A stretch of DNA of 64,000 nt, taken from positions 130,113-194,112 of the forward strand of contig JAFRPL010000014.1 of the NCBI GenBank assembly GCA_017429165.1, written 5' to 3'. The position numbers and the translations under genes were made by a program. The DNA comes from Clostridia bacterium (GTDB taxonomy: Bacteria > Bacillota > Clostridia > Oscillospirales > CAG-382). Within the stretch, counting starts at the first letter, position 1, and each line of letters starts with the position of its first letter. The notes under the pieces are model-generated. The model ran no database searches, was not told the DNA's origin, and was given only the letters and a program-made list of their open reading frames with translations. This document shows positions 3,907 through 57,843 of the stretch, piece after piece.

Positions 3907-4018
3907 GGACTCACCCCGTTTCAGGTCTTTCGTAATATAATACCGCGAAAAAAGGAAAAAGCGGACAAAAAATTTTGTTCCGCTTGAAATTTTATCATAT
4001 TTTTTCGGATTTGTCAAA

Positions 4019-5014: not shown

Positions 5015-5045
5015 TCTTATCACCCGCAATGAATATATGCCGCGG

Positions 5046-5933: not shown

Positions 5934-6042
5934 CAAAACACCCCTCTTTGTACGTTATTATTCGCACTCACGCCGCAAAAAATGCAAAAAGCTCTTGTAT
6001 TCGCGGCAAAAATATGTATAATGCTATTTGGGAGTTTGTATT

Positions 6043-32294: not shown

Positions 32295-32356
32295 ATCTCG
32301 ATTCTCCATTCCGTTTGAAAATAGTTCATTCAAACGTTATGAAGCGAGAGACGGAT

Positions 32357-38114: not shown

Positions 38115-38188
38115 TTTTATGAAAAGTGAAACCTTCTCCTTATTTTTTCGTCTTAATAAGTGAAAGCGGCTTTCGAAAGGAACATTTC

Positions 38189-41700: not shown

Positions 41701-44016
41701 CCCGGCGACACCGTCACGGTCACCGTGACCGCTCCGCAGCTTGCGGGCGGGAAAGCGCTTATAAGCATTGTGGACGAAGCGTGCTTCGCCTTGGGCGAAA
41801 ACGCGTACAGTCTGCTTAATTACCTCAAATCGAGCGGCTATTTCGCGTCACAGTCTTATATGATCCGTTCTTACAATGCTTACAATGAATATAGGTACCG
41901 CGGTTATATTCAGGGTTATCACACCGGCGGAAGGCTCACTTCGTTTTCCGATATCCCGCTTTCGCGCCTGATCGGCTCGAAACTCGGGGGCAATTCCGAT
42001 TATATATATATCGACGGCAAAATGTATAGGTATGAGTACATGGAAGCAGAAGCGGAAGCGCCCGGAGACGCCGTCAACACGGAAGGCGAAAAATCGTACT
42101 ATGTGCGCGAAAACTTCGCCGACAACCCCGTTTTTGCACAGCTCGAATTCGACGAAAACGGCACGGCGACGCTGGTATTCAAGGTACCGGACAACCTCAC
42201 GACCTGGCGCGTGACCGCGCTGGGCATAAAGAATGCGGAAAAATTCAGCGACATCCGCATTGCGCAGAGCACGGGCGATCCCGTGTGCACGCTGCCGTTC
42301 TTCGTAAAGACCGATATGTGTTCCACCTACGTCAAAGGCGACGACATTGCGCTTTCGGTCCGCTGCTTCGGTACAAAAGCGCAGGGACATGCAAATTATA
42401 CGGCGGTGATATGCGACGCTGAAGGCAGCGAGATAGCGCGCAAAGAGGTTTCCGGCGACACCAAGGCGTTCACCGGAGTCAATTTCGGCAAGCTGGACGC
42501 AGGCGATTACAGTCTCACCGTTTACGCCGACTGCGGCGAATACACCGACGCTTTGAAGAGCACGTTCAGAGTGGTGACTTCCACGCTCGCGGTAGACGCT
42601 GTGGCGACGGTCACCTTGGACGAACTCAAATCCCTTAAAACGCTCGCATACCCCGTGAACGTGGTCGTAAGCGCCGGCGGAAGCGATTCGTTCTATTCCG
42701 GGGTGCTCGGCAGTCTCTATTACTCATACGGCGAACGCGCCGACGCGCTGGCGGCGAAATATGCCGCGGCGGTCATAATGAAAAACGTCTACGGCGGCGA
42801 TTTCGGCATTTCGGATATCGAAAGCAAGTTCGAATCGTTCTGCGGGACGGCCGGCGTCAAGCTTTTGCCTTACGGCGAAGCGGACGTCGAATTGACCGCT
42901 CTCATTGCGGACGTCGCTCCGGAGCTTTTGGCAGGAAAACTCACTGCTGCCGATCTGTTTGCAAACAAGCTTAACCGTAACGTGTTCCAAAGCGACGTGG
43001 AGCTTTGCGCTTCGATATACGGACTCGCCGCGTGCGGCGAACCCGTGCTCGACGTGCTGTACACGGTATCGTCGCAGGCCGGCGACTACAGCGACGAAGC
43101 CAAGTTTTACCTTGCGTGCGGATTTGCCGCAGCGGGCGATTATACCGCCGCGGAAAGCATCTATTCGCAAATAGTCGGCAAACTTGCGGTCGGCGTTGAA
43201 AACGCGATGTACCTCAAAGGCGCCGACGAAGACGCAAAGATCAAGCTCACTTCCCTTGCGCTGGTCGTCGCTTCGCGCATCAGGCGTTCCGACGCGATCA
43301 GATTCGCGCGCTACGCGGTAAGTATCCCGAACACGCACGGCGAAGCCGCGCATCTGGGACTTGCGGCGTTTGCAAAGTATTATCTGCCCGCCGAAAAGCA
43401 GGAACTGCAGAATATAAGCTACACTCTCGCCGACGGCGTTAAGCACGAGTCCGCAATAGGGTTCGGCAAGCAGCTTTGCCTTACGCTTTACAAATCGGAT
43501 CTCGAATCGCTCGTCCTTGAAGGGTGCGAAAACGCCGCGATAACCGTGCGTTACAGCGCGAGCGCCGCCGAGGCCGCGCGCGATTACGGCAAAGGCAGAG
43601 TGAAAGTGCAGAAGACCGTAAGCGGCGACGTGGTGACGATAACCGTTTCGGGTACTTCCAACAGGTACTGGGAATACTTCTCGTTCGACGACGTCATCCC
43701 TTCGGGCGCCCGCCTGCTCTACACTTTCAACCACGGCGACTACGCCAGAGGCAGCAACGCGACCGCGTATATCTACAACCGCGCCGGTCAGCGGATGGAA
43801 GGCCACATTTCGGTATCGGCCCCCGAAAGCTACTTTAAAAACTACCGCAAAGACAACACGGAATTCTGCAAGCAATATTCGTTCTCAGTCACCGTGAGTT
43901 ACCGCATACGCAAGGCGGTCAGCGGCGAGTTCAAGGTGGAACCCGCGGTGGTCGGTTCCGAATACAGCGAAGTATTTGAATTTTCAACAGGCAGTACGAC
44001 CGTTGTTTACGATTGA
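38749..44016 (+). CDS. Giant (1755 aa) single-pass membrane protein with an alpha-2-macroglobulin-like ectodomain; it occupies the anti-sigma position
   Basis: ATGA overlap with the sigma gene. TM is AGLIAAVLAVVIAAAFVIPALF. A bacterial Ig-like domain is present (ILPGAGSTEVPVNTGIEVTF...YTVTVKEGL). The A2M hallmark VPDNLTTWRVTALG is followed by LPFFVKTDM..GDDIALSV. The C-terminal FDDVIPSGARLL completes the pattern. Confidence 0.8.
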   Translation: MKNEKFMRSVGEIGDDLLQEAAGYKAESKAKANVPAPRGKLFRRAGLIAAVLAVVIAAAFVIPALFRQPDHVKIEIPPDNGIILKGGAYSTDANANLPESLREIEVLANGSGEKLMATDSTLVVKTAAECDTETFVKYVSVTPELPMAVTKVSATEFHLKPAQTAFAPNTLYRVTVGDPQNPAASFAFQTVSELAIKNILPGAGSTEVPVNTGIEVTFTDSVKNADFSDYITLTPAVSGKFMLYPNGKTVAFIPKEPLEYDSVYTVTVKEGLESISGKPLNAGRTAVFRTEGPDEDTQFVSWITASANGSRKAMFTPGDPYSLGSFVEYTAEIYYNDVSRTFAELPAGQVALTATFYRAVSWDSVAEAVTQLLSSDFAADYDENALLDKYFEKVDEIEFEPKDGVFRYNCSYTPEKEGFYYTVITARKNGTVRTFRDVFQISNLRLGGTAIDGKAVVVVSYDNGARVAGATVKGLRFSENAFYESVNRPEMTAFEITCGSDGTAVLEYGAGNALAFIYTDGERSALALKSVPGFDDNDYYINTLYTDRSVYFTNDAINVWGTLKGLYGAEVPEELYVFTGFSSVGTPVTVSEDGFFSASLKIENVMRTYTYVRVEDANGIVLANTMISVTEEEKPVIKAEMSFEKPYYFYGDTAVATIRVTFYDGTPAEGYEVSARCYEFDGDYGKVTDENGCATFRIKTGSVNANSTNPWTVSAYAYISGEGVDTLRCAASFVYFHSDYVLAYEGRVIKLNELDRSKCPEYAAGKPVTTKPGNVGAGSLEYALIQVKYNVYTYTEYDMYLKRSVERTRSERIETCEEQGKLYFEDGRIELKKVDYDPEKYYYYYRLYFTDAHGRYEFTVPARDYDDSYYTRYYTYYDRAYTVVLDKDAYLPGDTVNARFIYGETNNCPEPVLVFTGTSYISHTSGSEGAELFTEERLPEMRVTALFFDEIRKSWRAAGSTASYDYGSAVDGEISVKTDKDVYKPGDTVTVTVTAPQLAGGKALISIVDEACFALGENAYSLLNYLKSSGYFASQSYMIRSYNAYNEYRYRGYIQGYHTGGRLTSFSDIPLSRLIGSKLGGNSDYIYIDGKMYRYEYMEAEAEAPGDAVNTEGEKSYYVRENFADNPVFAQLEFDENGTATLVFKVPDNLTTWRVTALGIKNAEKFSDIRIAQSTGDPVCTLPFFVKTDMCSTYVKGDDIALSVRCFGTKAQGHANYTAVICDAEGSEIARKEVSGDTKAFTGVNFGKLDAGDYSLTVYADCGEYTDALKSTFRVVTSTLAVDAVATVTLDELKSLKTLAYPVNVVVSAGGSDSFYSGVLGSLYYSYGERADALAAKYAAAVIMKNVYGGDFGISDIESKFESFCGTAGVKLLPYGEADVELTALIADVAPELLAGKLTAADLFANKLNRNVFQSDVELCASIYGLAACGEPVLDVLYTVSSQAGDYSDEAKFYLACGFAAAGDYTAAESIYSQIVGKLAVGVENAMYLKGADEDAKIKLTSLALVVASRIRRSDAIRFARYAVSIPNTHGEAAHLGLAAFAKYYLPAEKQELQNISYTLADGVKHESAIGFGKQLCLTLYKSDLESLVLEGCENAAITVRYSASAAEAARDYGKGRVKVQKTVSGDVVTITVSGTSNRYWEYFSFDDVIPSGARLLYTFNHGDYARGSNATAYIYNRAGQRMEGHISVSAPESYFKNYRKDNTEFCKQYSFSVTVSYRIRKAVSGEFKVEPAVVGSEYSEVFEFSTGSTTVVYD

Positions 44017-45014: not shown

Positions 45015-45043
45015 TTGACAACCGCCGCGTTATCTGTTATAAT
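45015..45043 (+). promoter_or_regulatory. Consensus SigA promoter of the partner-switching operon
   Basis: TTGACA at 45015-45020, a 17-nt spacer, TATAAT at 45038-45043. Confidence 0.7.
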
Positions 45044-45126: not shown

Positions 45127-45732
45127 ATGGAATCAACGGTAATCGAAGTCACGAGCAAAGGCGGCGGAATAAGCGAGGCGCTTTCGCTGACCGAAAAACT
45201 GGGTATCGAAAGCGGTATCCGCAAAAAATCCGTGATACATCTGCGGCTGCTCGCCGAAGAGCTGTTCGGCATGCTCCGCAGCATAGCCGGCGACGTAAGC
45301 GCGAACTACTGGATAGAATACAACGGGCCGGATTTTGAACTGCATCTGAAATCGACGGTGGAAATCACCGACAAAATGCGCGACCAGTTCATTTCAGCTT
45401 CCAGCAGCGGCAAAAACGACGCGGCCCGCGGAGTGATGGGCAAGATAAAGGTGATGATAGCGAACTTTATGTTTTCCGCCAGAGAAGCCCTGCCCTACAC
45501 GCTTATCAACACCCCCGCCTCCTATCATATGGGGGCGGCCGCGGGCGAGACGGCGGCTATGTGGTCCATGTCGCTTTACAAGGACGAGATCAAAAAGACC
45601 GGCGGCAAAAAATCCGCCGAAGCATGGGACGAACTTGAAAAATCCATTGTCGCAAATATCGCAGACGACGTGAAAGTGTGTATTCTGGGCGACACTGTGG
45701 AGATAATCATAAACAAAACATTCTGGCACTGA
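45127..45732 (+). CDS. Hypothetical protein; first gene of the partner-switching operon
   Basis: AAAGGAG RBS. 201 aa and soluble. The N-terminal segment IHLRLLAEELFGMLRSIAG vaguely resembles the N-terminal helix of RsbW-like ATPases, but there is no N/G1/G2 box. Confidence 0.6.
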   Translation: MESTVIEVTSKGGGISEALSLTEKLGIESGIRKKSVIHLRLLAEELFGMLRSIAGDVSANYWIEYNGPDFELHLKSTVEITDKMRDQFISASSSGKNDAARGVMGKIKVMIANFMFSAREALPYTLINTPASYHMGAAAGETAAMWSMSLYKDEIKKTGGKKSAEAWDELEKSIVANIADDVKVCILGDTVEIIINKTFWH

Positions 45733-45759
45733 TACAAATAACGGAAAGAGGGTAAAACA

Positions 45760-46056
45760 ATGACTATCAACAAACAGAAAAACGAAAACGGGCTTTTGAT
45801 ATCGCTCGAAGGAAGACTGGACACCACCACTTCCCCCGCGCTCGAACAGGAGCTTAAAGCATCGCTCGACGGCGTGGATTCGCTGGTGCTTGATTTTGAA
45901 AAACTCGACTACATATCTTCCGCCGGACTTCGCGTGCTGCTTTCGGCTCAGAAAACGATGAACAAGCAGGGCGAAATGAAGATAAAGAACGTAAACGAAA
46001 CGATACTCGAAATATTCGAAGTCACAGGTTTCAACGACATCCTCACCATAGAATAA
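45760..46056 (+). CDS. STAS-domain anti-sigma-factor antagonist (SpoIIAA/RsbV-like)
   Basis: 98 aa. Contains LDFEKLDYISSAGLRVLL with the conserved phosphorylatable Ser context. Confidence 0.85.
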   Translation: MTINKQKNENGLLISLEGRLDTTTSPALEQELKASLDGVDSLVLDFEKLDYISSAGLRVLLSAQKTMNKQGEMKIKNVNETILEIFEVTGFNDILTIE

Positions 46057-46102
46057 ACTTGTCGCCGGCATTTTGCCGGATCTGACGAAAGGAGCCGCAT
46101 AA

Positions 46103-47740
46103 ATGCAGGGTGACAAGAGCAGCATCTGGAGCAGGTTTCGCTCCGGGATGACTTTCAACATAATAGGCATGATCGTGCTTTTGCTCATAGTATTCGGCAT
46201 AATCGCCGGCGCCGTGGGGCTTGTGAACTTTACCCAGGCGTTCGAAAACGAATACGCCACCACGACCTACCATATGGCGGATACCGCCACCACGCTGATA
46301 AACGGCAGCCATATAGCGGACTATCTGGAAGGCAAGCGCACCATAGAATATATGCAGAGCAAATCGTATCTGGAAGCGTACTGCAAGCGCATAGGCGTTT
46401 CGCTGGTCTACGTCATAATAGTGGATACGAGCGACTACGGCAGGTTCGTTTCGGTATTCAACCACGTCGACAACACCGTGGGCAATACCAGTTACGTCGA
46501 ATGGGAGCTTGGGCACAAGCGCGACACCACCAACGACGAATACCGCGCAAAATATAAAGCGATCTACGAACAGCAATCCGCGTACGAGACCGTCTACCGC
46601 AACAACCCTTCCGACGGCAGCCTTCCGCACATCACCACTATGGTGCCGGTCAAGGATTCCGAAGGTGAAGTGACGGGCATACTCTGCATACAGCGCCCGA
46701 TGAGCGAGCTTATGGGAGCGCGCAGGCCGTACGTGATAGCGGTCGCCTTGGCGACGGTGCTGCTCGCCGCTTTCGTGGCGGTGTTCTACACGTTCTTTAT
46801 GAGACGTCAGTTCGTCAATCCCATTTCGAAAGTCGCTTCGGAAGCGTCGCGTTTTGCGCGCGAAAACACCAAAGGCGAACCGCTCGGCAAAGTCAGCCGC
46901 TTTAAAGAGATATCCGACCTTTCCGAATCCATAGACACCATGGAATCCGACATGGTTAACTATATGCAAGCCATCACCGCTTCGGCCGCCGAAAAAGAGC
47001 GTATCGGCTTTGAGCTTTCGCTCGCCAACACCATTCAGGTGAATTCAATACCCAACGTATTCCCGGCGTTCCCCGAGCGGACCGATTTTGACATTTATGC
47101 TTCCATGACTCCGGCAAAACAGGTGGGCGGCGACTTTTACAATTTCTTCTTCGTGGACGACGATCACCTTGCGATATCCATAGGCGACGTTTCCGGCAAG
47201 GGCATTCCCGCCGCGCTGTTTATGATGGTAACCAACATACTCGTCAGCGACAGGACCCGTATGGGCGGGACGCCGGGCGAGATACTCACTTTTGTCAATC
47301 ATAATATATGCGCGCACAACAAAGCGGATATGTTCGTGACTCTGTGGCTCGGCGTACTGGAGCTTTCCACCGGGACCCTGATCGCCTCAAACGCCGGGCA
47401 CGAATATCCGGTGATAATGCAGCCGGGCGGAAAATACGAAATATTCAAAGACAAACACTGTCTCGCCGTGGGAGCGATGGACAGCATAAAATACAAAGAT
47501 TACACGCTCAAGCTCGAACGCGGCGCCCGTCTCTTCATTTACACCGACGGCGTTCCCGAAACGACGGATCAAGACAACCGGATGTTCGGAATGGAGCGTA
47601 TGGTCGAAACGCTCAACTCCGCAGCGGATGCAGATCCCGAAAACGTGATAACCGGCATGCGCCATGCGGTTGAGCTCTTTGCAAACGGCACCGAACAGTT
47701 CGACGATCTTACGATGCTGTGCATCGAACTCAAAAAGTGA
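46103..47740 (+). CDS. Membrane sensor PP2C (SpoIIE-family) phosphatase with an extracytoplasmic Cache-like domain and HAMP
   Basis: Two TM segments flank a ~180-aa ectodomain. A HAMP-like linker follows. PP2C motifs are GGDFYNFF, IGDVSGKGIPAALFM and YTDGVPE. Confidence 0.85.
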   Translation: MQGDKSSIWSRFRSGMTFNIIGMIVLLLIVFGIIAGAVGLVNFTQAFENEYATTTYHMADTATTLINGSHIADYLEGKRTIEYMQSKSYLEAYCKRIGVSLVYVIIVDTSDYGRFVSVFNHVDNTVGNTSYVEWELGHKRDTTNDEYRAKYKAIYEQQSAYETVYRNNPSDGSLPHITTMVPVKDSEGEVTGILCIQRPMSELMGARRPYVIAVALATVLLAAFVAVFYTFFMRRQFVNPISKVASEASRFARENTKGEPLGKVSRFKEISDLSESIDTMESDMVNYMQAITASAAEKERIGFELSLANTIQVNSIPNVFPAFPERTDFDIYASMTPAKQVGGDFYNFFFVDDDHLAISIGDVSGKGIPAALFMMVTNILVSDRTRMGGTPGEILTFVNHNICAHNKADMFVTLWLGVLELSTGTLIASNAGHEYPVIMQPGGKYEIFKDKHCLAVGAMDSIKYKDYTLKLERGARLFIYTDGVPETTDQDNRMFGMERMVETLNSAADADPENVITGMRHAVELFANGTEQFDDLTMLCIELKK

Positions 47741-47770
47741 TATATTTCCTTATTGAACACGAGGTCCTTT

Positions 47771-49372
47771 ATGGCAGACAACAATAAAAACACGGTCGTT
47801 TACAGGCTTTGCGGAAAGATCGATTCCGGCAACGCGCCGCAGATCGAACAGGAGATCTTCACCGCGCTTGCCGGCAGGGGCGACGTATTGCCCGTACTGG
47901 ATGCCGAAGCGCTCGAATATATTTCGAGCGCGGGGCTGCGGATAATCCTGCGGCTGAAAAAGTCATGCGGCGACGTAAAAATCACAAACGCGAATTCCGA
48001 TATATACGAAATACTGGAAATGACCGGTTTTACCGAGATAATGCAGGTCGAAAAAGCGTACCGCAAAGTGTCGGTCGAAGGCTGCGATGTCGTCGGCGAG
48101 GGTCAGAACGGCAAAGTCTACCGCGTGGACCGCGACAACGTGGTGAAGGTGTATAAAAACGCCGACGCGCTGGAAGACATTAAGCACGAACGCGAAATGG
48201 CAAAACTGGCGCTGATACTGGGCATCCCCACCGCGATTTCGTACGACGTGGTCAAAGTGGGCGAAAGCTACGGTTCGATGTTTGAGCTTCTGGACGCGAG
48301 ATCTTTTTCAAACATACTCGCAAAGGAACCCGAACGGATAGACGAATGCGTATACGAATACGTGAAGATATTAAAGAAACTCCATTCCACGCACGTGCCC
48401 GAAGGCAAACTCCCCCGCTTAAAGGAACGCGTGGTCAAGGCGGCTTCGTATACTAAGGATCAGCTTCCGGAGGGCCTGGGCGACAAGCTTATGCGGATGA
48501 TAGAGGCGATACCCGAGACCGATACCCTGATCCACGGCGACTGCCACACCAAGAATATAGTGATGACGGGCGAAGAAGTCATGCTTATAGACATGGACAC
48601 GCTTTCGGTTGGCCACCCGATATTTGAATTTATGCGAATGTACAATTCGTATATAGGGTATTCGGAATACGACCCACAAGTGCTGGAAGATTTTCAGGGC
48701 TACCCCGCCGAGACGGCGCGCGTTTTCTGGAAAAAAACGCTGTGCGCGTATTTCGGCACGGATGACGAAGATGTGATAAATTCCATAGAAGAAAAGATCC
48801 GCTGCGTTTCGTACGCGTATCTTATCGACTGGTCCCGCCGTCACAAAGCGGCGGAAACCGAGCGCGGCCGTCTTACGTGCGAGCTTTGGAAAAAGCGCAT
48901 TACGGAACTGATACCGCGTCTGGATTCGCTCGACTTTGAAGTGAACGAAGCGACGCGAGACGATCCGAACGAGCTTACGCTGGAAGCCGAAAAAGACAAT
49001 CTGACCCGCGTGCTTGAATTCTTGGACCGGCGGCTTGAAAGCTGCGATTTGCCGCCCAAGGCGCAGATGCAGTTAGACCTTGCGGTGGAAGAGATATTCA
49101 TAAACATAGCGAGCTATGCATATTCCCCCAACAAAGGAAAAGCGACCGTCCGCGTGGAAGTCACGGGCGACCCCGTGACCGTGACGATAACGTTCATAGA
49201 CCGCGGCGTTCCTTACGACCCGCTCAAAAAGACCGATCCCGACGTGACGCTTTCGGCGGACGACCGCGAAATAGGCGGGCTCGGGATATTCCTCGCCAAA
49301 AAGATAATGGACGATATATCTTACGAATACAAAAACGGACAGAATATATTGCGGCTCAAAAAAAAGATTTGA
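47771..49372 (+). CDS. Triple fusion: STAS domain, APH/protein-kinase-like phosphotransferase domain, and RsbW/SpoIIAB-like HATPase domain
   Basis: STAS part: LDAEALEYISSAGLRIIL. Kinase-like part: GEGQNGKVYRV..VKVYK, HGDCHTKNIVM, LIDMDT. HATPase part: N box EEIFINIASYAY, G1 DRGVPYDP, G2 GGLGIFLAKK. Confidence 0.85.
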   Translation: MADNNKNTVVYRLCGKIDSGNAPQIEQEIFTALAGRGDVLPVLDAEALEYISSAGLRIILRLKKSCGDVKITNANSDIYEILEMTGFTEIMQVEKAYRKVSVEGCDVVGEGQNGKVYRVDRDNVVKVYKNADALEDIKHEREMAKLALILGIPTAISYDVVKVGESYGSMFELLDARSFSNILAKEPERIDECVYEYVKILKKLHSTHVPEGKLPRLKERVVKAASYTKDQLPEGLGDKLMRMIEAIPETDTLIHGDCHTKNIVMTGEEVMLIDMDTLSVGHPIFEFMRMYNSYIGYSEYDPQVLEDFQGYPAETARVFWKKTLCAYFGTDDEDVINSIEEKIRCVSYAYLIDWSRRHKAAETERGRLTCELWKKRITELIPRLDSLDFEVNEATRDDPNELTLEAEKDNLTRVLEFLDRRLESCDLPPKAQMQLDLAVEEIFINIASYAYSPNKGKATVRVEVTGDPVTVTITFIDRGVPYDPLKKTDPDVTLSADDREIGGLGIFLAKKIMDDISYEYKNGQNILRLKKKI

Positions 49373-49398
49373 ATCAAAAAAAGGAGCGTGAGAGTTCC

Positions 49399-50262
49399 GT
49401 GGAAAAGCGCTTGCGCAATATAGACCTGCATATGCACACGACGGTCTCCGACGGGACCGACACGCCCGAAATGCTGATTGGCGCGGTGAAAGCCGCCGGG
49501 ATAGAGGTTTTTTCCGCCACCGATCACGACGCGGTGAAGACCGGGCTCATTATCAGGTCGCTCCTCGAACCCGGCGACCCGGTATTCATTACGGGCGCCG
49601 AGTTTTCGTGCAAGGACGAGGAAGGCAAATATCACATACTCGGCTACGGGTTCGATCCGTCGGGCGCGCCGATGGCCGGACTCGTGAGGAAAGGCCACGC
49701 GCTGAGAATGAAAAAAGTCGCGGCGCGGATCGGCTTTATAAAGAGCGAATTCGGGTTCGAATTCCGTAAAGAAGATATCGACTCGCTGTTTGCGCTGGAC
49801 AACCCGGGAAAGCCGCACATAGCCAACCTTATGGTGAAATACGGCTACGCGACCGACAAGGATACGGCGATGCGCGAATACCTCAACCGCATGCGGTTCA
49901 GAAGCGAATACGTGCGCCCCGAGGAAGCGATATCCGCCGTCACCGCCGCGGGCGGGATCCCCGTGCTGGCGCATCCGTTTTACGGCAGCGGCGACGAACT
50001 CATATTGGGCGACGAGATGGAAGACCGTCTGCGCCGGCTCATGGAAATGGGGCTGCGCGGCGTGGAGGCGTTTTATTCCGGTTTTTCGGCGAAACTGCGC
50101 GAAAACATGCTTGCGCTTGCGCGGAAATACCGCCTTTACGTGACCGCCGGCAGCGACTATCATGGCTCAAACAAGCTCGTAACGCTCGGCGATACCGGCC
50201 TGCGCGACGCCGGAGAAATGCCCGAAGGGCTGATACGTTTTTTGAAAGACGCGGTAAAATGA
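49399..50262 (+). CDS. PHP-domain phosphoesterase
   Basis: Motif IDLHMHTTVSDGT...FSATDHD. AAAGGAG lies upstream of the GTG at 49399. The ORF is open from 49369. Confidence 0.75.
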   Translation: MEKRLRNIDLHMHTTVSDGTDTPEMLIGAVKAAGIEVFSATDHDAVKTGLIIRSLLEPGDPVFITGAEFSCKDEEGKYHILGYGFDPSGAPMAGLVRKGHALRMKKVAARIGFIKSEFGFEFRKEDIDSLFALDNPGKPHIANLMVKYGYATDKDTAMREYLNRMRFRSEYVRPEEAISAVTAAGGIPVLAHPFYGSGDELILGDEMEDRLRRLMEMGLRGVEAFYSGFSAKLRENMLALARKYRLYVTAGSDYHGSNKLVTLGDTGLRDAGEMPEGLIRFLKDAVK

Positions 50263-51473
50263 GAATAGAGTTTGATACGTTAGATAAAAAACCGCATTTA
50301 TATCTGCTGATACTGCCCGTCGTCATTGCGGCGGCCGCGGTTTTTCTGCTTGTGCGTTCGACGCCGGACGGTAATCCCGCCACGGTTTGCGCTGTGACTG
50401 TGTCGCTGTGCGCGGTCATTATTTTCGCGCTCGTGCGGGCGCTGATACGCCAGATACGGTATAATCCATACTCGTACAACACCATATACTACGCGGGCTT
50501 CGCGCTGTTTACGACGTTCGTGCTTTTCAATCACTTTTACCTGTTCTATATGCTCGCCAAATACTCGGGGCAGATCACTGCCGCGGACGTGCTGAGCATA
50601 TGGCTCAATTCGGCAAAGAACTATATGCTCATGACTTCGCCGTTTTTGCTCTTCTTTTCGACGGCGCTGTGCGTTGCGAATATCTCGCTGATACGGCACG
50701 AGGGCAAAAAGATTTCCAACCTTTTCGGCATACTGCTCTCATTCGTCATAGTGGCGGGCGGCGTTTTTATTTACCGGTACGATTATTACGCCACGGGCAG
50801 CGAATTCGAAGTGATGATGCACGACATTTTCATCAACACCGTCGCCGCGCTGTATCTGTATCTTGAATGCATGATAGCGGGCGTCATATTCGCCGGAGTG
50901 CTGGCGGCGCGCCACGAACCGAAAAAAGACAAGGATTTTATCATAATACTTGGGTGCGGACTCAGAAAAGACGGCACGCCCACGCCGCTTCTGCGCGGCA
51001 GGATCGACCGCGCGCTTGAATTTGCGCGCAGGCAGGAAGAGCAGACCGGCAAAGCTCCGTGTTTTGTGACTTCCGGCGGCAAAGGCGCGGACGAAGCGGT
51101 TTCCGAAAGCGCCGCGATGGCAGATTATCTGCTTGAAAACGGCGTGCCGGAAGAGCGTATAATCAGAGAGGACCGTTCGACCAGCACGTTTGAGAATATG
51201 AAGTTTTCAAAAGAGCTTATAGAAAGCTCCGGCGGCGGAAAGATCGCCTTTTCGACCACCAATTACCACGTTTTCCGCAGCGGGTTGTACGCGCGGCGCG
51301 TCAAAATGCGCGCAGTGGGTATGGGCGCAAAGACCAAGTGGTATTTCTGGCCGAACGCCGCCGTGCGCGAATTCGCGGGGCTGTTGAGCGCCCATCGCCT
51401 TAAACAGGCGATAATAATCGGCGCTATGATAGCCGTGTACGTGGCGCTGACGCTGCTCGCATATAATCCTTAA
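50259..51473 (+). CDS. Polytopic membrane protein with a C-terminal DUF218 (YdcF/SanA-like) domain
   Basis: ATGA overlap with the PHP gene. Five or more TM segments are followed by DFIIILGCGLRKDG...VTSGGKGADEAVSESAAMADYL...STSTFEN. Confidence 0.75.
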   Translation: MRIEFDTLDKKPHLYLLILPVVIAAAAVFLLVRSTPDGNPATVCAVTVSLCAVIIFALVRALIRQIRYNPYSYNTIYYAGFALFTTFVLFNHFYLFYMLAKYSGQITAADVLSIWLNSAKNYMLMTSPFLLFFSTALCVANISLIRHEGKKISNLFGILLSFVIVAGGVFIYRYDYYATGSEFEVMMHDIFINTVAALYLYLECMIAGVIFAGVLAARHEPKKDKDFIIILGCGLRKDGTPTPLLRGRIDRALEFARRQEEQTGKAPCFVTSGGKGADEAVSESAAMADYLLENGVPEERIIREDRSTSTFENMKFSKELIESSGGGKIAFSTTNYHVFRSGLYARRVKMRAVGMGAKTKWYFWPNAAVREFAGLLSAHRLKQAIIIGAMIAVYVALTLLAYNP

Positions 51474-51499
51474 CGCTTTTTGATTCCGGAGTGAGCTAT

Positions 51500-52159
51500 A
51501 TGAACGAAGTAAGCAGAAACGACATAAGGTACGATCCTTCCGGGTTCGTGCCGCTGGGGGATTTCGTCCCGCAGGCGATACAGGAGATACGTTATTACTC
51601 GACATACAATTTCATAGGCGACCGCATAGACGGCTACGAGCAGCCGTGCGCTCTGCTCACGGCGGAAGCGGCGCGCGCGCTGAAGAGCGCCGCCGGCGAG
51701 CTTGCGGTGCAGGGCTACCGCATAAAGGTCTTCGACGCGTACCGCCCCGCCTGCGCGGTCCGGCATTTTGTGCTATGGGGCATAGAAGACACCGACGTGC
51801 GTATGAAACCTTTCTTTTACCCAGGCCTTGAAAAACAGGAGCTGTTTGCAAAAGGATATATCGCAAAGCTTTCTTCGCACAGCCGCGGCAGCGCCGTGGA
51901 TCTTACGCTTTTGGATATGGCGACGGGCAAAGAGCTCGATATGGGCAGTCCGTTCGACTTTTTCGGCGAGATCTCACACCCTTCGTACACCGGAATAACG
52001 CCCGAACAGTACGAAAACCGAATGATACTGCAACGCGCGATGCTGCGCGCCGGCTTTGAGATACTCGACTGCGAATGGTGGCATTTCAAGCTGAAAAACG
52101 AGCCGTATCCCGACACCTATTTCGAATTCCCCGTCTCGGCCAATTATCTGCGCCGCTGA
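51500..52159 (+). CDS. M15 D-alanyl-D-alanine dipeptidase (VanX/DdpX-like)
   Basis: Motifs FDAYRP, SSHSRGSAVDLTL and EWWHF, which are the zinc and catalytic motifs of VanX-type dipeptidases. Confidence 0.85.
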   Translation: MNEVSRNDIRYDPSGFVPLGDFVPQAIQEIRYYSTYNFIGDRIDGYEQPCALLTAEAARALKSAAGELAVQGYRIKVFDAYRPACAVRHFVLWGIEDTDVRMKPFFYPGLEKQELFAKGYIAKLSSHSRGSAVDLTLLDMATGKELDMGSPFDFFGEISHPSYTGITPEQYENRMILQRAMLRAGFEILDCEWWHFKLKNEPYPDTYFEFPVSANYLRR

Positions 52160-52178
52160 CAGTTCAAGGAGGCGCGAT

Positions 52179-52982
52179 ATGGAGATAAGAACGGGAAAAG
52201 TGCGTACCGGGTCATTTTGCATGGATCACTTCTCTTTCGGAAGCGGCGGCAAACCGCTCGTCATCCTGCCAGGGCTGAGCGTTCAGCCGATAACGCCCGC
52301 GTCTCAGGCGGTCGCTCTCGCGTATTCCGTTTTTGCAAAAGATTTTACGGTATATCTGTTCGATCGTGTGAGCGATCCGCCCGCCGGATACACCGTGCGC
52401 GATATGGCGCGCGACACCGAAAACGCGATATCCTCGCTGGGACTTGACGAAATATACCTTTTCGGCGCGTCTCAGGGCGGGATGATTGCTCTGGAAATGG
52501 CCGCGGAACACAAAATCAACGTAAAAAAGCTCGCCGTTGCTTCCTCGGCGCTGCATACCGGCGACGCCGCGGCGGCGATAACGGAAAGCTGGATAAATAA
52601 AGCCCTTTCCGGCGACGCCGAAGGACTTTATTCGGAGTTCGGCAGAACGGTGTACACCGAAGACGTGTTTTTGCGTTACGTGGATACGCTTTCCGCCGCC
52701 GCAAAGACCGTAACGCGCGACGAGCTCGAACGGTTCGCGATCTTCGCTTCGGCGGTAAAGGGATATTTCTCGTCGGCGAACAGGAACAACGTCCGCTGCC
52801 CGCTGTTTGCAGTCGGTTCGGACGACGACGCGATCTTCGGCGCGGACAGCGTGAATGCATTTGACGCGGAATTCGGCGAAAACGCGTATTTTTCGTCGTT
52901 CCTATACCGCGGTTTCGGACACGCGGTCTACGACACCGCGCCGGATTTCAAAGAACGCCTTTACGGTTTTTTCATTTCATGA
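52179..52982 (+). CDS. Alpha/beta hydrolase
   Basis: Nucleophile elbow GASQGG. A late G-F-GH-AV histidine motif is present. Confidence 0.75.
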   Translation: MEIRTGKVRTGSFCMDHFSFGSGGKPLVILPGLSVQPITPASQAVALAYSVFAKDFTVYLFDRVSDPPAGYTVRDMARDTENAISSLGLDEIYLFGASQGGMIALEMAAEHKINVKKLAVASSALHTGDAAAAITESWINKALSGDAEGLYSEFGRTVYTEDVFLRYVDTLSAAAKTVTRDELERFAIFASAVKGYFSSANRNNVRCPLFAVGSDDDAIFGADSVNAFDAEFGENAYFSSFLYRGFGHAVYDTAPDFKERLYGFFIS

Positions 52983-52996
52983 CACAGTAAAAAAAG

Positions 52997-53028
52997 CGCC
53001 GCTTGCAAAAGCAAGCGGCGTTTATATT
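52997..53028. terminator. Bidirectional terminator
   Basis: Stem cgccgcttgc / gcaagcggcg, loop aaaa, with A/T runs on both sides. Confidence 0.85.
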
Positions 53029-53033
53029 ATTAC

Positions 53034-54788
53034 TCAGAGGACGAGCGTAAGGTTGTTCAAGCCGAGAGAATTGACGTAATTTGCGCTTTTGACCATCTTC
53101 ATGACCATTCTAATGCCTATATGCGCGGTCGGCTCGTCGACGCGGTGGAGTTCCATATACTTTACGGGATCGAAATCCGCGCAGTTGTCGCGTATACGTA
53201 TGACGCGCCTGCCGCCTTTATAAACCAGGCGGATATCTATGCTGTGCTCCTTGCCGTCGCCTGCAAACCCGTGGCGCACGATATTGACCGCCATTTCTTC
53301 TATGCAAAGCGCTAAAAGAGAGCTGTTTCGCCGCGTTTCGCCGTAGCGGATACAGAATTCCTGCGCTTTTTCCGAAGCTTCAACGACACGCTCTATGGAA
53401 TCGGCGGAGGTTTCAAAGCAGTCGTTTTGAGCGGCGCCGAATTCCGCGGGCAGGAACGCGAACGTTTCGGCGGAAAACGAGACGCGGCGGCTTTTTATGA
53501 ATACGATGGCCGCCATTATGATAAGCGTAAGCGTTTCGCCGCACAGGAACGAAAGCCAAACGCCCGTGACTCCCCAAAAGCGTGAAAGCAGAAACGCAAA
53601 CGCCGCGACAAGGGCGAAGTTCTGCATAAGCGAAATCGCCTGCGTGAGCCACGCCTTGTTCACGCCCTGATAGTAGTTCTTGAACGTGGTGTTCAGCGCG
53701 CCGGGCAGCAGCGAAAGCGAAAACAGCCGCACGCCCAGGACCGCCATATCCGCCGCGGCGGGCGCTTCGGTAAGGAACAGCGCCACGAGCGCAGGCGCGG
53801 AAAAGAACACCGCGACAGTCAGCAGCGAAACGAGCAGCGCCGAATAGAAAGACATGGTCTTGACGAGCGAGCACAGTTCGGATCTGTCCTCGTCGCTGTA
53901 AAAGATGGAAGAAAGCATAAGCGCGACCGAAGCGACGCCCGAACCCACGCAGTAGCAGATATTGCCCACGGTGGAAATGACCGAATACGCAGCCACGGCG
54001 TTGTTTTTGCCCACGTCCAGCAGTATGGAGTTCATAACGAACACCATAAGGACAAGACTTACCTGATTCACGACCGTAGGTACGCCGTATTTGAGCAGCG
54101 TGCCGCAGGTCTTAGCCTTGACATAAGCAAAATTGAAACGGAACACGCATTTCTTTTTGAAGAAATACACAAGCCCTATGAAAAACGCTATGTAATAGCT
54201 CACGCTCGAAGCGACGCCCATGCCGAACGTGCCCTGCTTTACCACGAAGACGTTGAGGATATCGAGCGCCACGTCCGCCGCGGTCATAGCCGCCACGGCT
54301 GTGATGAGGCGCGTCCTGTTGCCGGTGATCTGCATATACGGCACCATTATCTGTGCAAATATGAACGCCGGCGCGCCGATTATGAATCCTCGCAGGTAGT
54401 CGCGCGTCAAAAAGAAAACGTCGTTGCCGGGTACGGGATTGCCCGCGCCGAGCAGGGTGCAGATAGGCGAGGAAAAAAGTATGACCAGAACCGAACCGGC
54501 GACCGAAATGACGAACGCCAGAAACACCGATACCGAAAAGCACGCGTTGGTGCCTTTCATGTCGCCGCCGCCCATCGTCTTGCCGCACATCACCTGTATG
54601 CCGGCCGAAAGCGTCGTCCCGACCGCCGCGAAAACGAGCAGCACGGGAGTGGCGAGCCCGTAAGCGGTCATTGAATCGACGCCCAGAAAGCGGCCTATCA
54701 TGATGCTGTCCACGAGCATACACAGCATGACGGTCATCGACGATATTATCTGTGCGGAAAGCATTTGCCTGAAAACTCTTTTTATCAT
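53034..54788 (-). CDS. MATE-family efflux transporter fused to a C-terminal cytoplasmic RsbW-like HATPase domain
   Basis: A 12-TM MATE-like body (MIKRVFRQMLSAQIISSMT...). The ~130-aa tail has the N box CIEEMAVNIVRHGF and the G1-like motif IRDNCADFDP. The G2 box is degenerate (AHIGIRMVMKM). Confidence 0.8.
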   Translation of the reverse strand: MIKRVFRQMLSAQIISSMTVMLCMLVDSIMIGRFLGVDSMTAYGLATPVLLVFAAVGTTLSAGIQVMCGKTMGGGDMKGTNACFSVSVFLAFVISVAGSVLVILFSSPICTLLGAGNPVPGNDVFFLTRDYLRGFIIGAPAFIFAQIMVPYMQITGNRTRLITAVAAMTAADVALDILNVFVVKQGTFGMGVASSVSYYIAFFIGLVYFFKKKCVFRFNFAYVKAKTCGTLLKYGVPTVVNQVSLVLMVFVMNSILLDVGKNNAVAAYSVISTVGNICYCVGSGVASVALMLSSIFYSDEDRSELCSLVKTMSFYSALLVSLLTVAVFFSAPALVALFLTEAPAAADMAVLGVRLFSLSLLPGALNTTFKNYYQGVNKAWLTQAISLMQNFALVAAFAFLLSRFWGVTGVWLSFLCGETLTLIIMAAIVFIKSRRVSFSAETFAFLPAEFGAAQNDCFETSADSIERVVEASEKAQEFCIRYGETRRNSSLLALCIEEMAVNIVRHGFAGDGKEHSIDIRLVYKGGRRVIRIRDNCADFDPVKYMELHRVDEPTAHIGIRMVMKMVKSANYVNSLGLNNLTLVL

Positions 54789-54997
54789 ATATAAGGCTCC
54801 GTTTTTTGATGAATATATTGTACCATATAACTGCGGTTTTTTCAAGTGATAAATTTCGCACGTTCGACAGTTTTCGCTTGCTGTGAAAAACGGCAAGAAG
54901 GCAAAAAACCACTTGTAGAATCATTTGACGTATGCTATAATGATACGGGCGAAAACCGTTTTGCCGAATGATCTCCTAAAAGGACGGTATATGCGAT

Positions 54998-56122
54998 ATG
55001 AAAAAGATCATCACACTCATCCTTGCGCTGCTGCTCTGTTCCGCCGCGCTGTTTGCCTGCGGCAAGGCTGGCGCGTCCGGGCTTCGCGGCTCGGCGGTCA
55101 CGCACGAGACCAAGTTCGGCGGCGTATATTTTGACAAGACCATTGAAGAATTCAACGCTTTGGGATTTGAATACGGCGACAGCGTGAACATAACGTTTTC
55201 CAACGGAAAATCGCTCGCAGACATCCCCTATTACAACGGTTATTACGTCGATATAGGCTATCCGCTGCTGGTGGCGTATCCCGGGTACCCGTATATAGAG
55301 GCCATGGTCAACTACGGCGACGATCTGTTCGTGACTCTGGAGCTCGACGAAACCTGCACCGCGGATATCGAGCTGTGCGAGCGCGGCAAGTATGCGGGCG
55401 TGCAGAAAGCGCGCGACATACAGTATTCCGACGAGCAGGGCGATCAGAGCGACGAAGTGTTCGCCAATTTCCGCGCCGTCAACATGGGAGAGTTGAAAAA
55501 AGACGTGCTCTACCGTTCGGCTTCGCCCTGCAACGACGAGCACAACCGCGCCGCCGTCACCGACAGGCTCGCCGCCGGAGCGAAAATAGGATTTATGCTC
55601 AACCTTTCGGATAACGAAAGCGATATACTCGGCTTCATCGCCGCGGACACGTTCGATTCGCCTTATTTCCTTTCGCTTTTCAACAGCGGCAACGTGGCGC
55701 CGCTGGGGCTGAGCGCCAACTTCAAAAGTGCGTCTTTCGGCGAAAAGCTGGCGCGCGGTCTCGAAGCGGTCGCGCAGAGCGAAGGCCCGGTGCTGATCCA
55801 TTGCGTGGAAGGTAAAGACCGCACCGGCTACGTGCTGATGCTGCTCGAAGCGCTGTGCGGCGCTTCTTACGGCGAGATAGTCGACGACTATATGCTCACC
55901 TACGATAACTACTACGGCATAAACAAGACGAGCGACCGCGAACGGTACGATATTATCAAAGAAAAGAATCTTGACGTAATGATATCCTATATGACCGGCA
56001 CGCCGGCGTCGGAAGGGTTCGAAAACGCCGACCTGGCAAAGAGCGCCCGCGAGCTGCTCGTAAGAATTGGTATGACCGAAGAATCGGTGAACAGACTGTA
56101 TTCAAAACTGACCGGAGAATAG
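54998..56122 (+). CDS. Lipoprotein with a CX5R tyrosine/dual-specificity phosphatase domain (Y_phosphatase3-like)
   Basis: Lipobox ALFAC|GK. Active site is IHCVEGKDRTGYV. An N-terminal ~130-aa beta-rich domain has unclear identity. Confidence 0.75.
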   Translation: MKKIITLILALLLCSAALFACGKAGASGLRGSAVTHETKFGGVYFDKTIEEFNALGFEYGDSVNITFSNGKSLADIPYYNGYYVDIGYPLLVAYPGYPYIEAMVNYGDDLFVTLELDETCTADIELCERGKYAGVQKARDIQYSDEQGDQSDEVFANFRAVNMGELKKDVLYRSASPCNDEHNRAAVTDRLAAGAKIGFMLNLSDNESDILGFIAADTFDSPYFLSLFNSGNVAPLGLSANFKSASFGEKLARGLEAVAQSEGPVLIHCVEGKDRTGYVLMLLEALCGASYGEIVDDYMLTYDNYYGINKTSDRERYDIIKEKNLDVMISYMTGTPASEGFENADLAKSARELLVRIGMTEESVNRLYSKLTGE

Positions 56123-56183: not shown

Positions 56184-57761
56184 CTAACGCTCGGTGAGCG
56201 GGTAGGAATCGCCGAAGAGCACATGGCGAAGCAGATAAATCGCGTCGTTGGAACTGACTTTTCCGTTGCCGTCGAAATCGGCGTAAGCATAGATCGCGTA
56301 CGATTCGCCGAAGAGCACGTGGCGAAGCAGATATATGGCGTCGTCGGAATCGACGTCGCCGTCGCAATCCAGATCGCCGAGCTCATATTCATAGACTCCG
56401 GCGCCCGCGGTGATATAGTGTTCGATACTGCCGTATGAGTTCGCCAGAAGCACGTATTCCAGATAAACGTCTTTTTGCTTTCCGGGGTTGACGTTCACGC
56501 TGAACACGGGCGACGATGCGTCCCAGTGATAAAGCGAATCCAGAAGTCCGCCGTCCGCGGAACGCAGGTTGACCGCCAGCACGCCGTTATTTTTTAAGAA
56601 AAGCGTGAACGTGCGCGGACGCGTGCCGCTGTTGTAAAAGCTGAGCGTCTCTTCGTAAACGACCATCCAGTTGCCTATGTTGGCGGGCTTACCGGTGCCG
56701 TCGTTGTGGTAAATATCTATGACTACGGGCGTGCCGTCTTCGGTGACGCATTCGAACGGCATCATGTCGGTGCCTATATATTCGTTATGGTTGGTGGGAT
56801 TGATGTGCGTGAACCAGCCGGTGCCGGACATATGCCTGACCGAAGGTTTGCCCGTGTAAGCGCCGTACACGCCGTACGAAGTGGGATCGTCGTAATATTC
56901 GACGTCGTATTCGACTTTTAGCTTATCGCCGTCAGGCAAGCTGTCGTTGACGTTCCACGCCATGGAAGCCTGCGCGCAGAGATAAGGCGCCGACCCCAGA
57001 TACTGTCTGCCGTAGTTTCTGCCGTCGCGTTCGACTATATATCCCTGCTGCTTATCGGTCGTGACGGGCGAAGCGGACGAGGTATAGCAAACGAATGCCA
57101 GCGACACGCCGCTCTTGGGACCCTTGACTTCGAAATACACCGCGCCGTTGACGACCTGACCGTCGCCCGCAAATTTGTCGGCGGTATTGCCGACGTTGAT
57201 ATTCTTGTACGAATCGGCGGAAGAGCCGCCCATAACATATATATATTTTCCGCTGGGGACGGTATAAGTGACTTCTTTGAAGTTGCTCGGAGCGTAGGTG
57301 TTTGTAAAAGAGTAATTTCCGCCCGCTTTCTCCAGACGGTATTTGGTGTTGAAAAAGTCGGTCCATTCCACCTGGCCCACCCAGTCTATACCGGTCTGGT
57401 AGCCGATGTTTTTGACTTTTACTTCGATATCCTGACCCGAATCGTTGCGCAGCTGAAGACCGAGAATTATCTTCTTTCCGGTGAGGTTGCGATTTTCGCT
57501 GGTAAAATAGACTTCTCCGCAGACGTTTCTTTCTATGAGCAGCGCCTGGCCTATGTTGAAAGCGTAAAGCGCTTCGGGATTGTTGCAGTAAATGAATTTT
57601 CCGCCTCTGCGCAGCGAATATTCGATTTTTGCCGCGGCGTTCGCCTCGCCGGGATCGTCGGGTTCCGTGAGCCCGAACGGTGAAGAATAGGCGAACGCGG
57701 GCAGAACGGCGCAGAACAGCGCCAATATGACTGCGAGCAATATGCTTACGGCTTTTTTCAT
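56184..57761 (-). CDS. Secreted protein of unknown catalytic/binding function with a C-terminal type-I dockerin
   Basis: Has a signal peptide. Two dockerin Ca-binding repeats are present: DLDCDGDVDSDDAIYLLRHVLF and DFDGNGKVSSNDAIYLLRHVLF. Confidence 0.85.
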   Translation of the reverse strand: MKKAVSILLAVILALFCAVLPAFAYSSPFGLTEPDDPGEANAAAKIEYSLRRGGKFIYCNNPEALYAFNIGQALLIERNVCGEVYFTSENRNLTGKKIILGLQLRNDSGQDIEVKVKNIGYQTGIDWVGQVEWTDFFNTKYRLEKAGGNYSFTNTYAPSNFKEVTYTVPSGKYIYVMGGSSADSYKNINVGNTADKFAGDGQVVNGAVYFEVKGPKSGVSLAFVCYTSSASPVTTDKQQGYIVERDGRNYGRQYLGSAPYLCAQASMAWNVNDSLPDGDKLKVEYDVEYYDDPTSYGVYGAYTGKPSVRHMSGTGWFTHINPTNHNEYIGTDMMPFECVTEDGTPVVIDIYHNDGTGKPANIGNWMVVYEETLSFYNSGTRPRTFTLFLKNNGVLAVNLRSADGGLLDSLYHWDASSPVFSVNVNPGKQKDVYLEYVLLANSYGSIEHYITAGAGVYEYELGDLDCDGDVDSDDAIYLLRHVLFGESYAIYAYADFDGNGKVSSNDAIYLLRHVLFGDSYPLTER

Positions 57762-57843
57762 GATTATCACCTTTTCCCTTTTTTCCTATATCATTATACC
57801 GCATTATACCGCGCCGGGCGCGCTTTGTCAACACGCCTTTTCG

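Follow-up and report, generated by a model that had tools for sequence, protein, structure and literature searches.

A DinF-type MATE transporter with a degenerate RsbW/SpoIIAB-like tail: a possible receiver of a sigma-less partner switch in rumen and gut Bacillota

Introduction

Why should a transporter of the drug-efflux type end in the domain of an anti-sigma kinase? The question is raised by a gene at 53034..54788 on the minus strand of a 64-kb window (the whole stretch analysed here, 64,000 nucleotides of contig JAFRPL010000014.1 from a Clostridia bacterium), whose open reading frame (ORF) translates into a product of 584 aa that is matched in Pfam by both MatE and HATPase_c_2, each above its curated cut-off. 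We lean, with modest confidence, towards the reading that this protein is a DinF-type MATE exporter whose kinase-dead RsbW/SpoIIAB-type tail is the receiver of a partner switch that works without a sigma factor, a docking site of the kind known from UsfX/RsbW1. What sigma-less partner switches control is an open question to which the fusion would offer a concrete answer, and because the transporter is fused to the GHKL half of a STAS/GHKL pair, the target of the switch could be read from sequence alone.

Results

In an AlphaFold2 model of the whole fusion protein (pLDDT 82.6, pTM 0.83, built on 56 homologues) the transmembrane helices end at about residue 433, and a domain of the order beta-alpha-alpha-beta-beta-alpha-alpha-beta-beta comes after them. 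The model and the two Pfam domains bear out what the initial annotation had described, a MATE transporter with a cytoplasmic tail of about 130 aa after the twelfth transmembrane helix (TM12). The membrane domain, residues 1-433 (53490..54788, minus strand), has its twelve helices arranged in two six-helix lobes as in MATE proteins, and the best Foldseek match of the whole model is PfMATE (3wbn/3vvn; target-normalised TM-score 0.85-0.86). MatE (PF01554) scores 71.7 bits in two stretches against a cut-off of 24.9, and the NCBIfam matches to this part are generic MATE models that all stay under their cut-offs (TIGR00797, 120.9 bits with a cut-off of 147.4). The nearest solved proteins by sequence are DinF-BH and PfMATE (over residues 1-435), and in a profile alignment to 5c6o and 3vvn D27 in TM1 falls on the coupling aspartate, D40 in DinF-BH and D41 in PfMATE; D27 is invariant in the 56 aligned fusion homologues. 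As the fold matches PfMATE and the coupling aspartate is conserved, the membrane part looks like a competent DinF-type exporter. DinF-BH and PfMATE (4lz6/5c6o, 3vvn), which have this aspartate in common with the fusion, both end after TM12, whereas the fusion continues into a cytoplasmic linker (residues 434-455; 53424..53489, minus strand) that carries an LLPxxFG motif conserved in the alignments and is the least conserved segment of the protein (43% mean pairwise identity).

The tail, residues 456-584 (53037..53423, minus strand), is assigned to the anti-sigma-kinase-like GHKL domains by Pfam, by its own model and by structural matches in the PDB. HATPase_c_2 is found at residues 465-582 with 35.4 bits, or 39.8 bits when the tail is scanned alone, against a cut-off of 27.4, and NCBIfam adds a weak RsbA-type anti-sigma match. 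Compared with the PDB by sequence the tail gives weak matches only (SpoIIAB, E ~0.09). The initial annotation had let its proposal depend, STAS binding apart, on the tail modelling as a GHKL fold and on the fusion being conserved in related genomes. On the first point, a separate model of residues 434-584 (pLDDT 81.5) is of the anti-sigma-kinase type, and its 13 best PDB matches in Foldseek are all SpoIIAB, RsbW or UsfX, with E values down to 4.5e-7. Target-normalised TM-scores are 0.68-0.75 for SpoIIAB (1th8, 1tid, 1l0o, 1til, 1thn) and 0.72-0.79 for RsbW (6m36, 6m37); UsfX of M. tuberculosis is among the top matches both with its STAS partner (8ih8) and with sigma F (8jzt), and ordinary histidine-kinase domains match much more poorly.

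The nucleotide-binding motifs of the tail are partly kept and partly lost. The N box CIEEMAVNIVRHGF (residues 495-508; 53265..53306, minus strand), when aligned with the neighbouring GHKL kinases and with SpoIIAB, retains E497/E498, N502 and H506, including the catalytic glutamate and the Mg-binding asparagine, with E498 and N502 invariant. In the G1 remnant DNCADFDP (residues 534-541; 53166..53189, minus strand) D534 is kept, the first glycine is replaced by cysteine and the second position is variable, so that D-N-C-x-x-F-D-P stands where the kinases have DxGxP or DxGxG; the cysteine (C536) is present in 53 of 54 close sequences, and some distant members have glycine. The G2 remnant AHIGIRMVM (residues 555-563; 53100..53126, minus strand) reduces GGLG to xHIG (x-H-I-G-I-R as opposed to GGLG in the kinases), and the ATP lid lacks four residues by comparison with the neighbouring kinases. 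The residues that replace the canonical G1 and G2 are themselves nearly invariant, and at a mean pairwise identity of 58%, compared with 65% in the membrane domain, the tail is nearly as constrained as the transporter. An N box, a G1-like DNCADFDP and a degenerate G2 had been described from the sequence, and this description is accurate; the suggestion drawn from it, a binding module rather than an active kinase, fits these motifs, as the tails are degenerate in G1 and G2 whereas the neighbouring kinases are canonical. We also considered that C479, C495, C536, H548 and H556 might form a Cys/His metal site where ATP would once have bound, an idea that was dropped as unsupported, distant members having Gly, Ser or Thr in place of C536.

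On the second point, conservation, all 80 species loci kept for study (of 176 stretches that encode relatives among one-genome-per-species contigs) encode the full fusion, residues 1-584, and the fusion is also found in a distant second clade. Most of the 80 loci come from rumen metagenome-assembled genomes of Ruminococcus, Oscillospiraceae and Clostridia, together with an isolate, Ruminococcus sp. FC2018 (L054); in Clostridiales bacterium UBA1206 (L001) the fusion is 93% identical and the gene order is as in the window. The search with the full-length protein gave more than 120 clusters (60-93% identity); their length is about 584 aa with few exceptions, nearly all are precomputed as PF13581 + PF01554, and NCBI names them only 'ATP-binding protein' or 'MATE family efflux transporter'. 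With a tail profile, an exhaustive search at E <= 1e-30 gave 470 representatives of 50%-identity clusters, and those of full length all have 573-676 aa and carry the tail at the C-terminus; a search for homologues of the tail only returned just fragments of the same fusion on short contigs and is uninformative on other architectures. Representatives that are 20-30% identical in the membrane domain still show about 40% identity in the tail and keep its signature, EEMxxN..HGF / RD[ND]C..F[DN]P / [HN]IGI[RK]. The second clade, about 25% identical in the membrane part, has named members in Ruminococcaceae, Oscillospiraceae, Erysipelotrichaceae and Mogibacterium.

The initial annotation had noted a free STAS antagonist 7 kb upstream. 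The STAS gene is real and lies 7 kb away (45760..46056, plus strand), but it is situated to the left of the 3' end of the MATE gene and is therefore convergent with it, not transcriptionally upstream; moreover, it belongs to a full module with U201, a PP2C phosphatase and a STAS-APH-GHKL kinase that had been overlooked. These genes form an operon-like plus-strand row that starts at 45127, behind a promoter-like site (45015..45043, plus strand; TTGACA-17-TATAAT, 12 of 12 positions, a consensus match only). U201 (45127..45732, plus strand) is a 201-aa protein without a family match; over its N-terminal third it looks like the start of a GHKL domain, the first strand and two helices. It is followed by the free, anti-sigma-antagonist-like STAS protein (98 aa; PF01740, E = 2e-17; TIGR00377, 75.8 bits; YISSAGL), by a membrane phosphatase of the SpoIIE-type PP2C family (46103..47740, plus strand; SpoIIE, E = 2e-45), and by a three-domain STAS-APH-GHKL protein (47753..49372, plus strand; Pfam and motif alignment) whose HATPase_c_2 domain has canonical N, G1 (DxGxP) and G2 (GGLG) boxes. 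The phosphatase is laid out as two transmembrane segments around a weakly Cache/PAS-like outer domain, a HAMP-like region and PP2C; its N-terminal matches are weak, the orthologues in L086 show HAMP + SpoIIE, and there is a weak match to the SiaA model.

To follow these genes in other genomes, domain profiles were built from the window proteins and iterated over all ORFs of the 80 loci, the STAS profile being seeded with SpoIIAA and RsbV sequences as well. About 40 of the 80 loci have partner-switching genes beside the fusion, with few exceptions on its own strand. The distance between the fusion and a STAS ORF is at most 100 bp in 18 loci and at most 5 kb in 37, of which 33 have the two genes on one strand, and where at least 5 kb is available on both flanks a STAS, PP2C or GHKL gene occurs within 5 kb in 28 of 40 loci. 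Distance served as an internal control: the density of STAS ORFs is 12.0 per 100 kb at 0-2.5 kb from the fusion, 2.3 at 2.5-5 kb and about 0.2 at 5-10 kb (1 ORF in 477 kb), that is, about 60-fold denser within 2.5 kb than at 5-10 kb. The module-carrying loci are scattered over many clades of the fusion tree and show at least eight gene orders, including minimal STAS + fusion pairs; examples are PP2C-GHKL, STAS, fusion, STAS-APH; STAS, STAS-APH-GHKL, fusion; U201, STAS, PP2C, fusion, STAS-APH-GHKL; STAS, U201, fusion, GHKL, PP2C; and fusion, U201, STAS, PP2C-GHKL. One apparent association, that of L057, was excluded: a genuine spoIIAA-spoIIAB-sigF operon (5844-7319) lies 2.7 kb upstream of the fusion by chance, its GHKL aligns with SpoIIAB rather than with the module kinases, and it would inflate the association counts if kept.

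In the distant clade, six members reside on long contigs, each with a PP2C or STAS gene no more than 4 kb from the fusion. The survey of co-occurrence that had been suggested was hence positive in about half of all loci, in 28 of the 40 with full flanks and in 6 of 6 distant ones. Four of the six carry on one strand STAS, SpoIIE, STAS-APH-HATPase_c_2, PHP and/or DUF218, the fusion and Peptidase_M15 (SpoIIE is absent from one of the four and Peptidase_M15 is present in three); in Mogibacterium 19 bp separate the end of a 5TMR_LYT-SpoIIE gene from the fusion that comes after it, and in the sixth locus DUF218 adjoins the fusion and a SpoIIE gene lies 2 kb downstream. As the distant clade repeats essentially the gene set of the window, positions 45127-54788 are, judging by gene content, one conserved cluster in which the fusion gene is inverted, and the linkage of the proposed receiver with the switch is itself conserved.

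The cluster encodes the candidate components of a partner switch. Every STAS domain of the modules, whether free or fused, has a phosphorylatable serine at the position of SpoIIAA S58 (YIS-S-AGLRVLL), and a PP2C phosphatase and a motif-intact GHKL kinase are encoded with the STAS. The kinase GHKL comes in three forms (in the window and in L003, L005, L020 and others), as a protein of its own of ~140 aa, in fusion with PP2C or as the last domain of STAS-APH-GHKL, all of which keep canonical N, G1 and G2 boxes; where PP2C-GHKL exists, the APH protein is STAS-APH without GHKL. The APH domain has as its best NCBIfam match TIGR02172 (a Fibrobacter paralogous family), under the cut-off. Since the GHKL of STAS-APH-GHKL keeps its canonical boxes, this protein is likely the STAS kinase. 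By its predicted functions the module is composed of an intact kinase, a phosphatase and their substrate, to which a second, degenerate GHKL is added on the transporter. U201 may be a third GHKL, still more degenerate: it has no Pfam, NCBIfam or PDB sequence match, its first ~55 residues give an hhalign probability of 80% against the GHKL profile, a partial match only, and LRLRLLAEEL and WDELEKSIIANLADDV stand at the expected N-box and G2 helix places. Its alignment shows as conserved motifs LRLRLLAEEL, SGKNAAAKG and WDELEKSIIANLADDVKV, and this family of about 200 aa lies beside STAS in 15 loci, sometimes as a tandem duplicate.

The initial annotation had also stated that no sigma factor is encoded nearby. 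This holds for the module that recurs with the fusion: no sigma-70-family ORF was found in any module of the surveyed loci, bar the unrelated spoIIA operon of L057, so that the cognate sigma factor expected alongside an anti-sigma factor is missing from their gene content. In the window, however, an ECF sigma gene about 7 kb beyond the STAS gene (38126-38752) had been overlooked; this gene and another at 3382-4017 are the nearest sigma genes of the window; both are ECF-type, and neither belongs to the genes that accompany the fusion in other genomes.

The distances among the free STAS proteins follow those of the tail (r = 0.62) more closely than those of the membrane domain (r = 0.49) in a mirror-tree comparison of 35 loci. 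Given the membrane domain, the partial correlation of STAS with the tail is 0.43 (permutation p = 5e-4), whereas the reverse partial correlation is 0.00; these statistics ignore shared descent. As controls, APH, PP2C and U201 gave partial correlations with the tail of 0.42, 0.32 and 0.50, U201 distances tracking the tail most strongly of all (r = 0.91), and the kinase GHKL tracks the membrane domain instead (partial r of 0.33, versus 0.14 for the tail). We read this as evidence that within the fusion it is the tail, rather than the membrane domain, whose evolution goes together with that of the module.

Discussion

The data support the model put forward in the initial annotation, in which the phosphorylation state of STAS would control efflux through docking on the tail, and on their basis we propose the following sequence of events. 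The membrane PP2C, through its extracytoplasmic sensor region, would meet an envelope or external cue and dephosphorylate the small STAS protein. The unphosphorylated STAS would then bind the GHKL tail of the transporter, as RsfB binds the kinase-dead UsfX/RsbW1, and this binding would alter transport activity. A separate, motif-intact GHKL kinase, in the window presumably the C-terminal domain of STAS-APH-GHKL, would re-phosphorylate the STAS serine and so release it. That STAS docks on the tail and affects transport, which signal and substrate are involved, that control runs towards the transporter as output and with what sign, are all inferred. More tentatively, and with doubts that slightly outweigh our confidence, we extend the proposal to a phospho-switch that would gate a MOP-superfamily transporter directly, the whole cluster (APH, VanX-like dipeptidase, DUF218, PHP and fusion) forming one post-translationally switched unit of envelope or antibiotic defence. 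If true, a signal read by the membrane PP2C would shift efflux within seconds without transcription.

The tail shares with SpoIIAB and RsbW of Bacillus (1th8, 1l0o, 6m36/6m37) the Pfam family HATPase_c_2, the fold, the Glu, Asn and His of the N box and the Asp of G1, as well as a gene neighbourhood with a STAS antagonist and a PP2C. Unlike SpoIIAB and RsbW, which are free dimeric proteins of about 145 aa, it is the C-terminal extension of a 12-helix transporter, lacks the G1 and G2 glycines, has a shorter lid and belongs to a module without a sigma factor. A closer precedent for a degenerate GHKL is the SigF system of M. smegmatis, in which RsbW1, which is UsfX-like and devoid of kinase activity, binds SigF and unphosphorylated RsfB, RsbW2 with intact N, G1 and G2 motifs solely phosphorylates RsfB, and RsbW3 pairs with RsbW1 (PMC7693655). 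Labour in the cluster described here is likewise split among GHKL paralogues, a degenerate binder, an intact kinase and a possible pairing partner. UsfX and RsbW1 hold sigma F, whereas the 'partner' of the fusion tail is a covalently attached membrane transporter, and the hosts are unrelated, Actinomycetota for UsfX/RsbW and Bacillota for the fusion.

Partner switches with outputs other than sigma factors are known as well, SiaABCD with a diguanylate cyclase output being one of them. Others are HsbR/HsbA (PMC6482189), SypE/SypA (PMC10120452) and HenR/All4160, the last with a glycosyltransferase target according to a 2026 preprint (bioRxiv 10.64898/2026.04.08.717354). All four systems apply the logic of PP2C, STAS and Ser-kinase to a non-sigma target as the cluster would, and the kinase-phosphatase fusion of the SypE type is mirrored by the PP2C-GHKL fusions of many fusion-bearing loci; their outputs, however, are cyclases, glycosyltransferases or unassigned, and none has a GHKL receiver inside a transporter. 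The SLC26/SulP anion transporters, which carry a C-terminal STAS domain (reviewed with the STAS-only proteins in PMC8256260), likewise present one half of a STAS/GHKL pair as a cytoplasmic C-terminal domain. They are the mirror image of the fusion, as SulP/SLC26 carries the STAS half and the MATE fusion the GHKL half, and they belong to the SLC26 and not to the MOP/MATE superfamily. We know of no cytoplasmic regulatory domain on a characterised bacterial MATE protein, and to our knowledge regulation of bacterial MATE pumps is known only at the level of gene expression. A full-text literature search returned no paper in which MATE transporters are connected with partner switching, with HATPase_c_2 or with RsbW-like domains. 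If true, a phospho-switch receiver that is part of the pump itself would be a new mode of regulation for this drug-efflux family; the fusion alone accounts for hundreds of clusters at 50% identity among Bacillota of the rumen and gut.

Several observations weigh against a STAS-docking receiver. In the window the fusion gene lies on the opposite strand with a promoter-like site of its own, and 3.6 kb separate it from the kinase gene. No module gene is seen within 10 kb in roughly half of the loci, among them 12 of the 40 with full flanks, which means that either the linkage is not obligatory or the partners are encoded elsewhere in those genomes. The kinase and U201 are both GHKL-type and could be the real partners of STAS. 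The co-variation with the tail is not specific to STAS, and as APH, PP2C and U201 behave similarly, that result supports a tail that follows the module rather than a tail that follows STAS in particular. Finally, E498, N502 and D534 are strictly conserved in the tails, and some binding of nucleotide or Mg could survive.

Control might also run in the opposite direction, with the transporter as input: the conformation or substrate state of the MATE domain would alter the hold of the tail on STAS or on the kinase, the module would report substrate load, and the output would be APH or another protein. Such an arrangement predicts the same gene linkage, and the module does possess a candidate effector of its own in the APH domain inserted between STAS and GHKL, the distances of which co-vary with the tail (partial r = 0.42). 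Against it, the module already has an input, since its PP2C bears a membrane sensor region, and APH is present in only 19 of the 80 loci as compared to 37 for STAS, with STAS + fusion pairs that lack an adjacent APH. On balance we regard a transporter that signals to the module as unlikely.

The transporter as receiver of STAS has also to be weighed against a pairing of the tail with another GHKL protein, the soluble kinase or U201, by which the kinase would be tethered to the membrane or titrated. In L053 and L078 a stand-alone GHKL gene is directly beside the fusion with no STAS in view; these are short contigs, however, and a STAS gene may therefore lie off the contig end. U201, with its GHKL-like N-terminus, is the protein that follows the tail most closely, SpoIIAB-type proteins dimerise and the pairing of RsbW1 with RsbW3 is a published precedent (PMC7693655), and yet the distances of the kinase GHKL follow the membrane domain rather than the tail, and STAS is the commonest and closest neighbour of the fusion (within 100 bp in 18 loci). 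This pairing we consider decidedly unlikely. Less probable still, to the point that we give it little credence, is that the tail is an active Ser kinase on STAS, a conventional RsbW fused to a transporter. The invariant N-box Glu and Asn and G1 Asp would agree with it, as would L012, L056 and L069-L071, which have STAS and the fusion and no other kinase within 10 kb; but every member seen has the reduced G2, the close clade has cysteine for the first G1 glycine, and the lid is short by four residues. In addition, most module-bearing loci encode a canonical kinase as well, and tails from the STAS-only loci come no closer to the canonical motifs than other tails do. That the tail is a structural or oligomerisation appendage in a coincidental neighbourhood, as the 12 full-flank loci devoid of module genes within 10 kb and the chance sporulation operon of L057 might suggest, is very unlikely given the ~60-fold enrichment of STAS next to the fusion, the common strand and the shuffled orders of the genes, and the recurrence of the association in a clade whose membrane domain is about 25% identical.

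Additional features of the locus

The ORF of the fusion gene as listed spans 53034-54896 on the minus strand, with its stop codon at 53036-53034 as read on that strand (53034-53036). The ATG at 54788 is most likely the true start, because a GGAG ribosome-binding site lies 8-9 nt upstream of it and a promoter-like site farther upstream (54817..54845, minus strand; TTGAAA, a 17-nt spacer and a TG-extended TACAAT, TGgTACAAT; a consensus match only). The fusion gene and the convergent module operon to its left have in common a bidirectional terminator-like hairpin (52994..53023), with a stem of 13 bp on the plus strand and 10 bp on the minus strand and a T run after each.

Four genes complete the plus-strand row between the kinase gene and this hairpin. 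They encode a PHP-family phosphoesterase (49369..50262; Pfam, NCBIfam), found also in seven close loci, L081 and L086; a DUF218 membrane protein (50259..51473; Pfam), found in L081, L085, L086, L087 and L088; a VanX-like D-Ala-D-Ala dipeptidase of the Peptidase_M15 family (51491..52159; Pfam E = 1e-38; NCBIfam VanX 191 bits, under its cut-off of 320), found in 8-10 close loci, L081, L086 and L088; and, as the last gene of the operon, an alpha/beta hydrolase (52179..52982; Pfam), found elsewhere only in L001 and L056. Both clades have PHP, DUF218 and the VanX-like dipeptidase as recurrent companions of the fusion and the switch. Their recurrence, together with that of APH, is only a hint at a role of the cluster in the cell wall, the envelope or antibiotics/glycopeptides; the link of the VanX-like dipeptidase, DUF218 and APH to cell-wall or antibiotic stress could steer the search for a substrate. 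In the rest of the 64-kb window our profiles found no further STAS, PP2C, GHKL, APH or MATE genes, and no protein of the cluster is matched by the PADLOC models of defence systems.

In other genomes the genes wedged just after the fusion vary by lineage: a Flavodoxin_2 quinone-reductase-like gene in five loci, and in other lineages an HD_4 gene (four loci) or a ParB_N/NIF-like gene (four loci, in tandem) directly after the fusion; examples of wedged genes are at L032:11712-12311, L003:11566-12132 and L020:11823-12707. Three genomes carry two copies of the fusion (L040+L048, L031+L053, L078+L080), and in at least two of the three pairs a module gene is beside one copy only.

On its other side the fusion gene is faced by a gene of opposite orientation for a putative lipoprotein with a Y_phosphatase3 domain (54998-56122, plus strand), beyond which a dockerin-bearing protein (56184-57770, minus strand) fits a cellulosome-producing rumen organism; both are conserved beside the fusion only in L001. 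The ECF sigma gene at 38126-38752 (plus strand) overlaps the start of a gene for a 1807-aa protein (38593-44016, plus strand) with Big_5, alpha-2-macroglobulin, MG2 and bMG10 domains. Sporulation genes are found on the minus strand, namely the sigma factor at 3382-4017, SpoIIP (4019-5029) and the germination protease Gpr (5046-5936), as well as a DpaA-like gene (29896-31122) and a gene for a SipL-domain protein (30780-32333), and their presence in the window indicates that the source organism is a spore-forming member of the Clostridia. The DpaA-like and SipL ORFs as listed overlap by about 340 nt, and one of the two start codons was therefore probably called too early.

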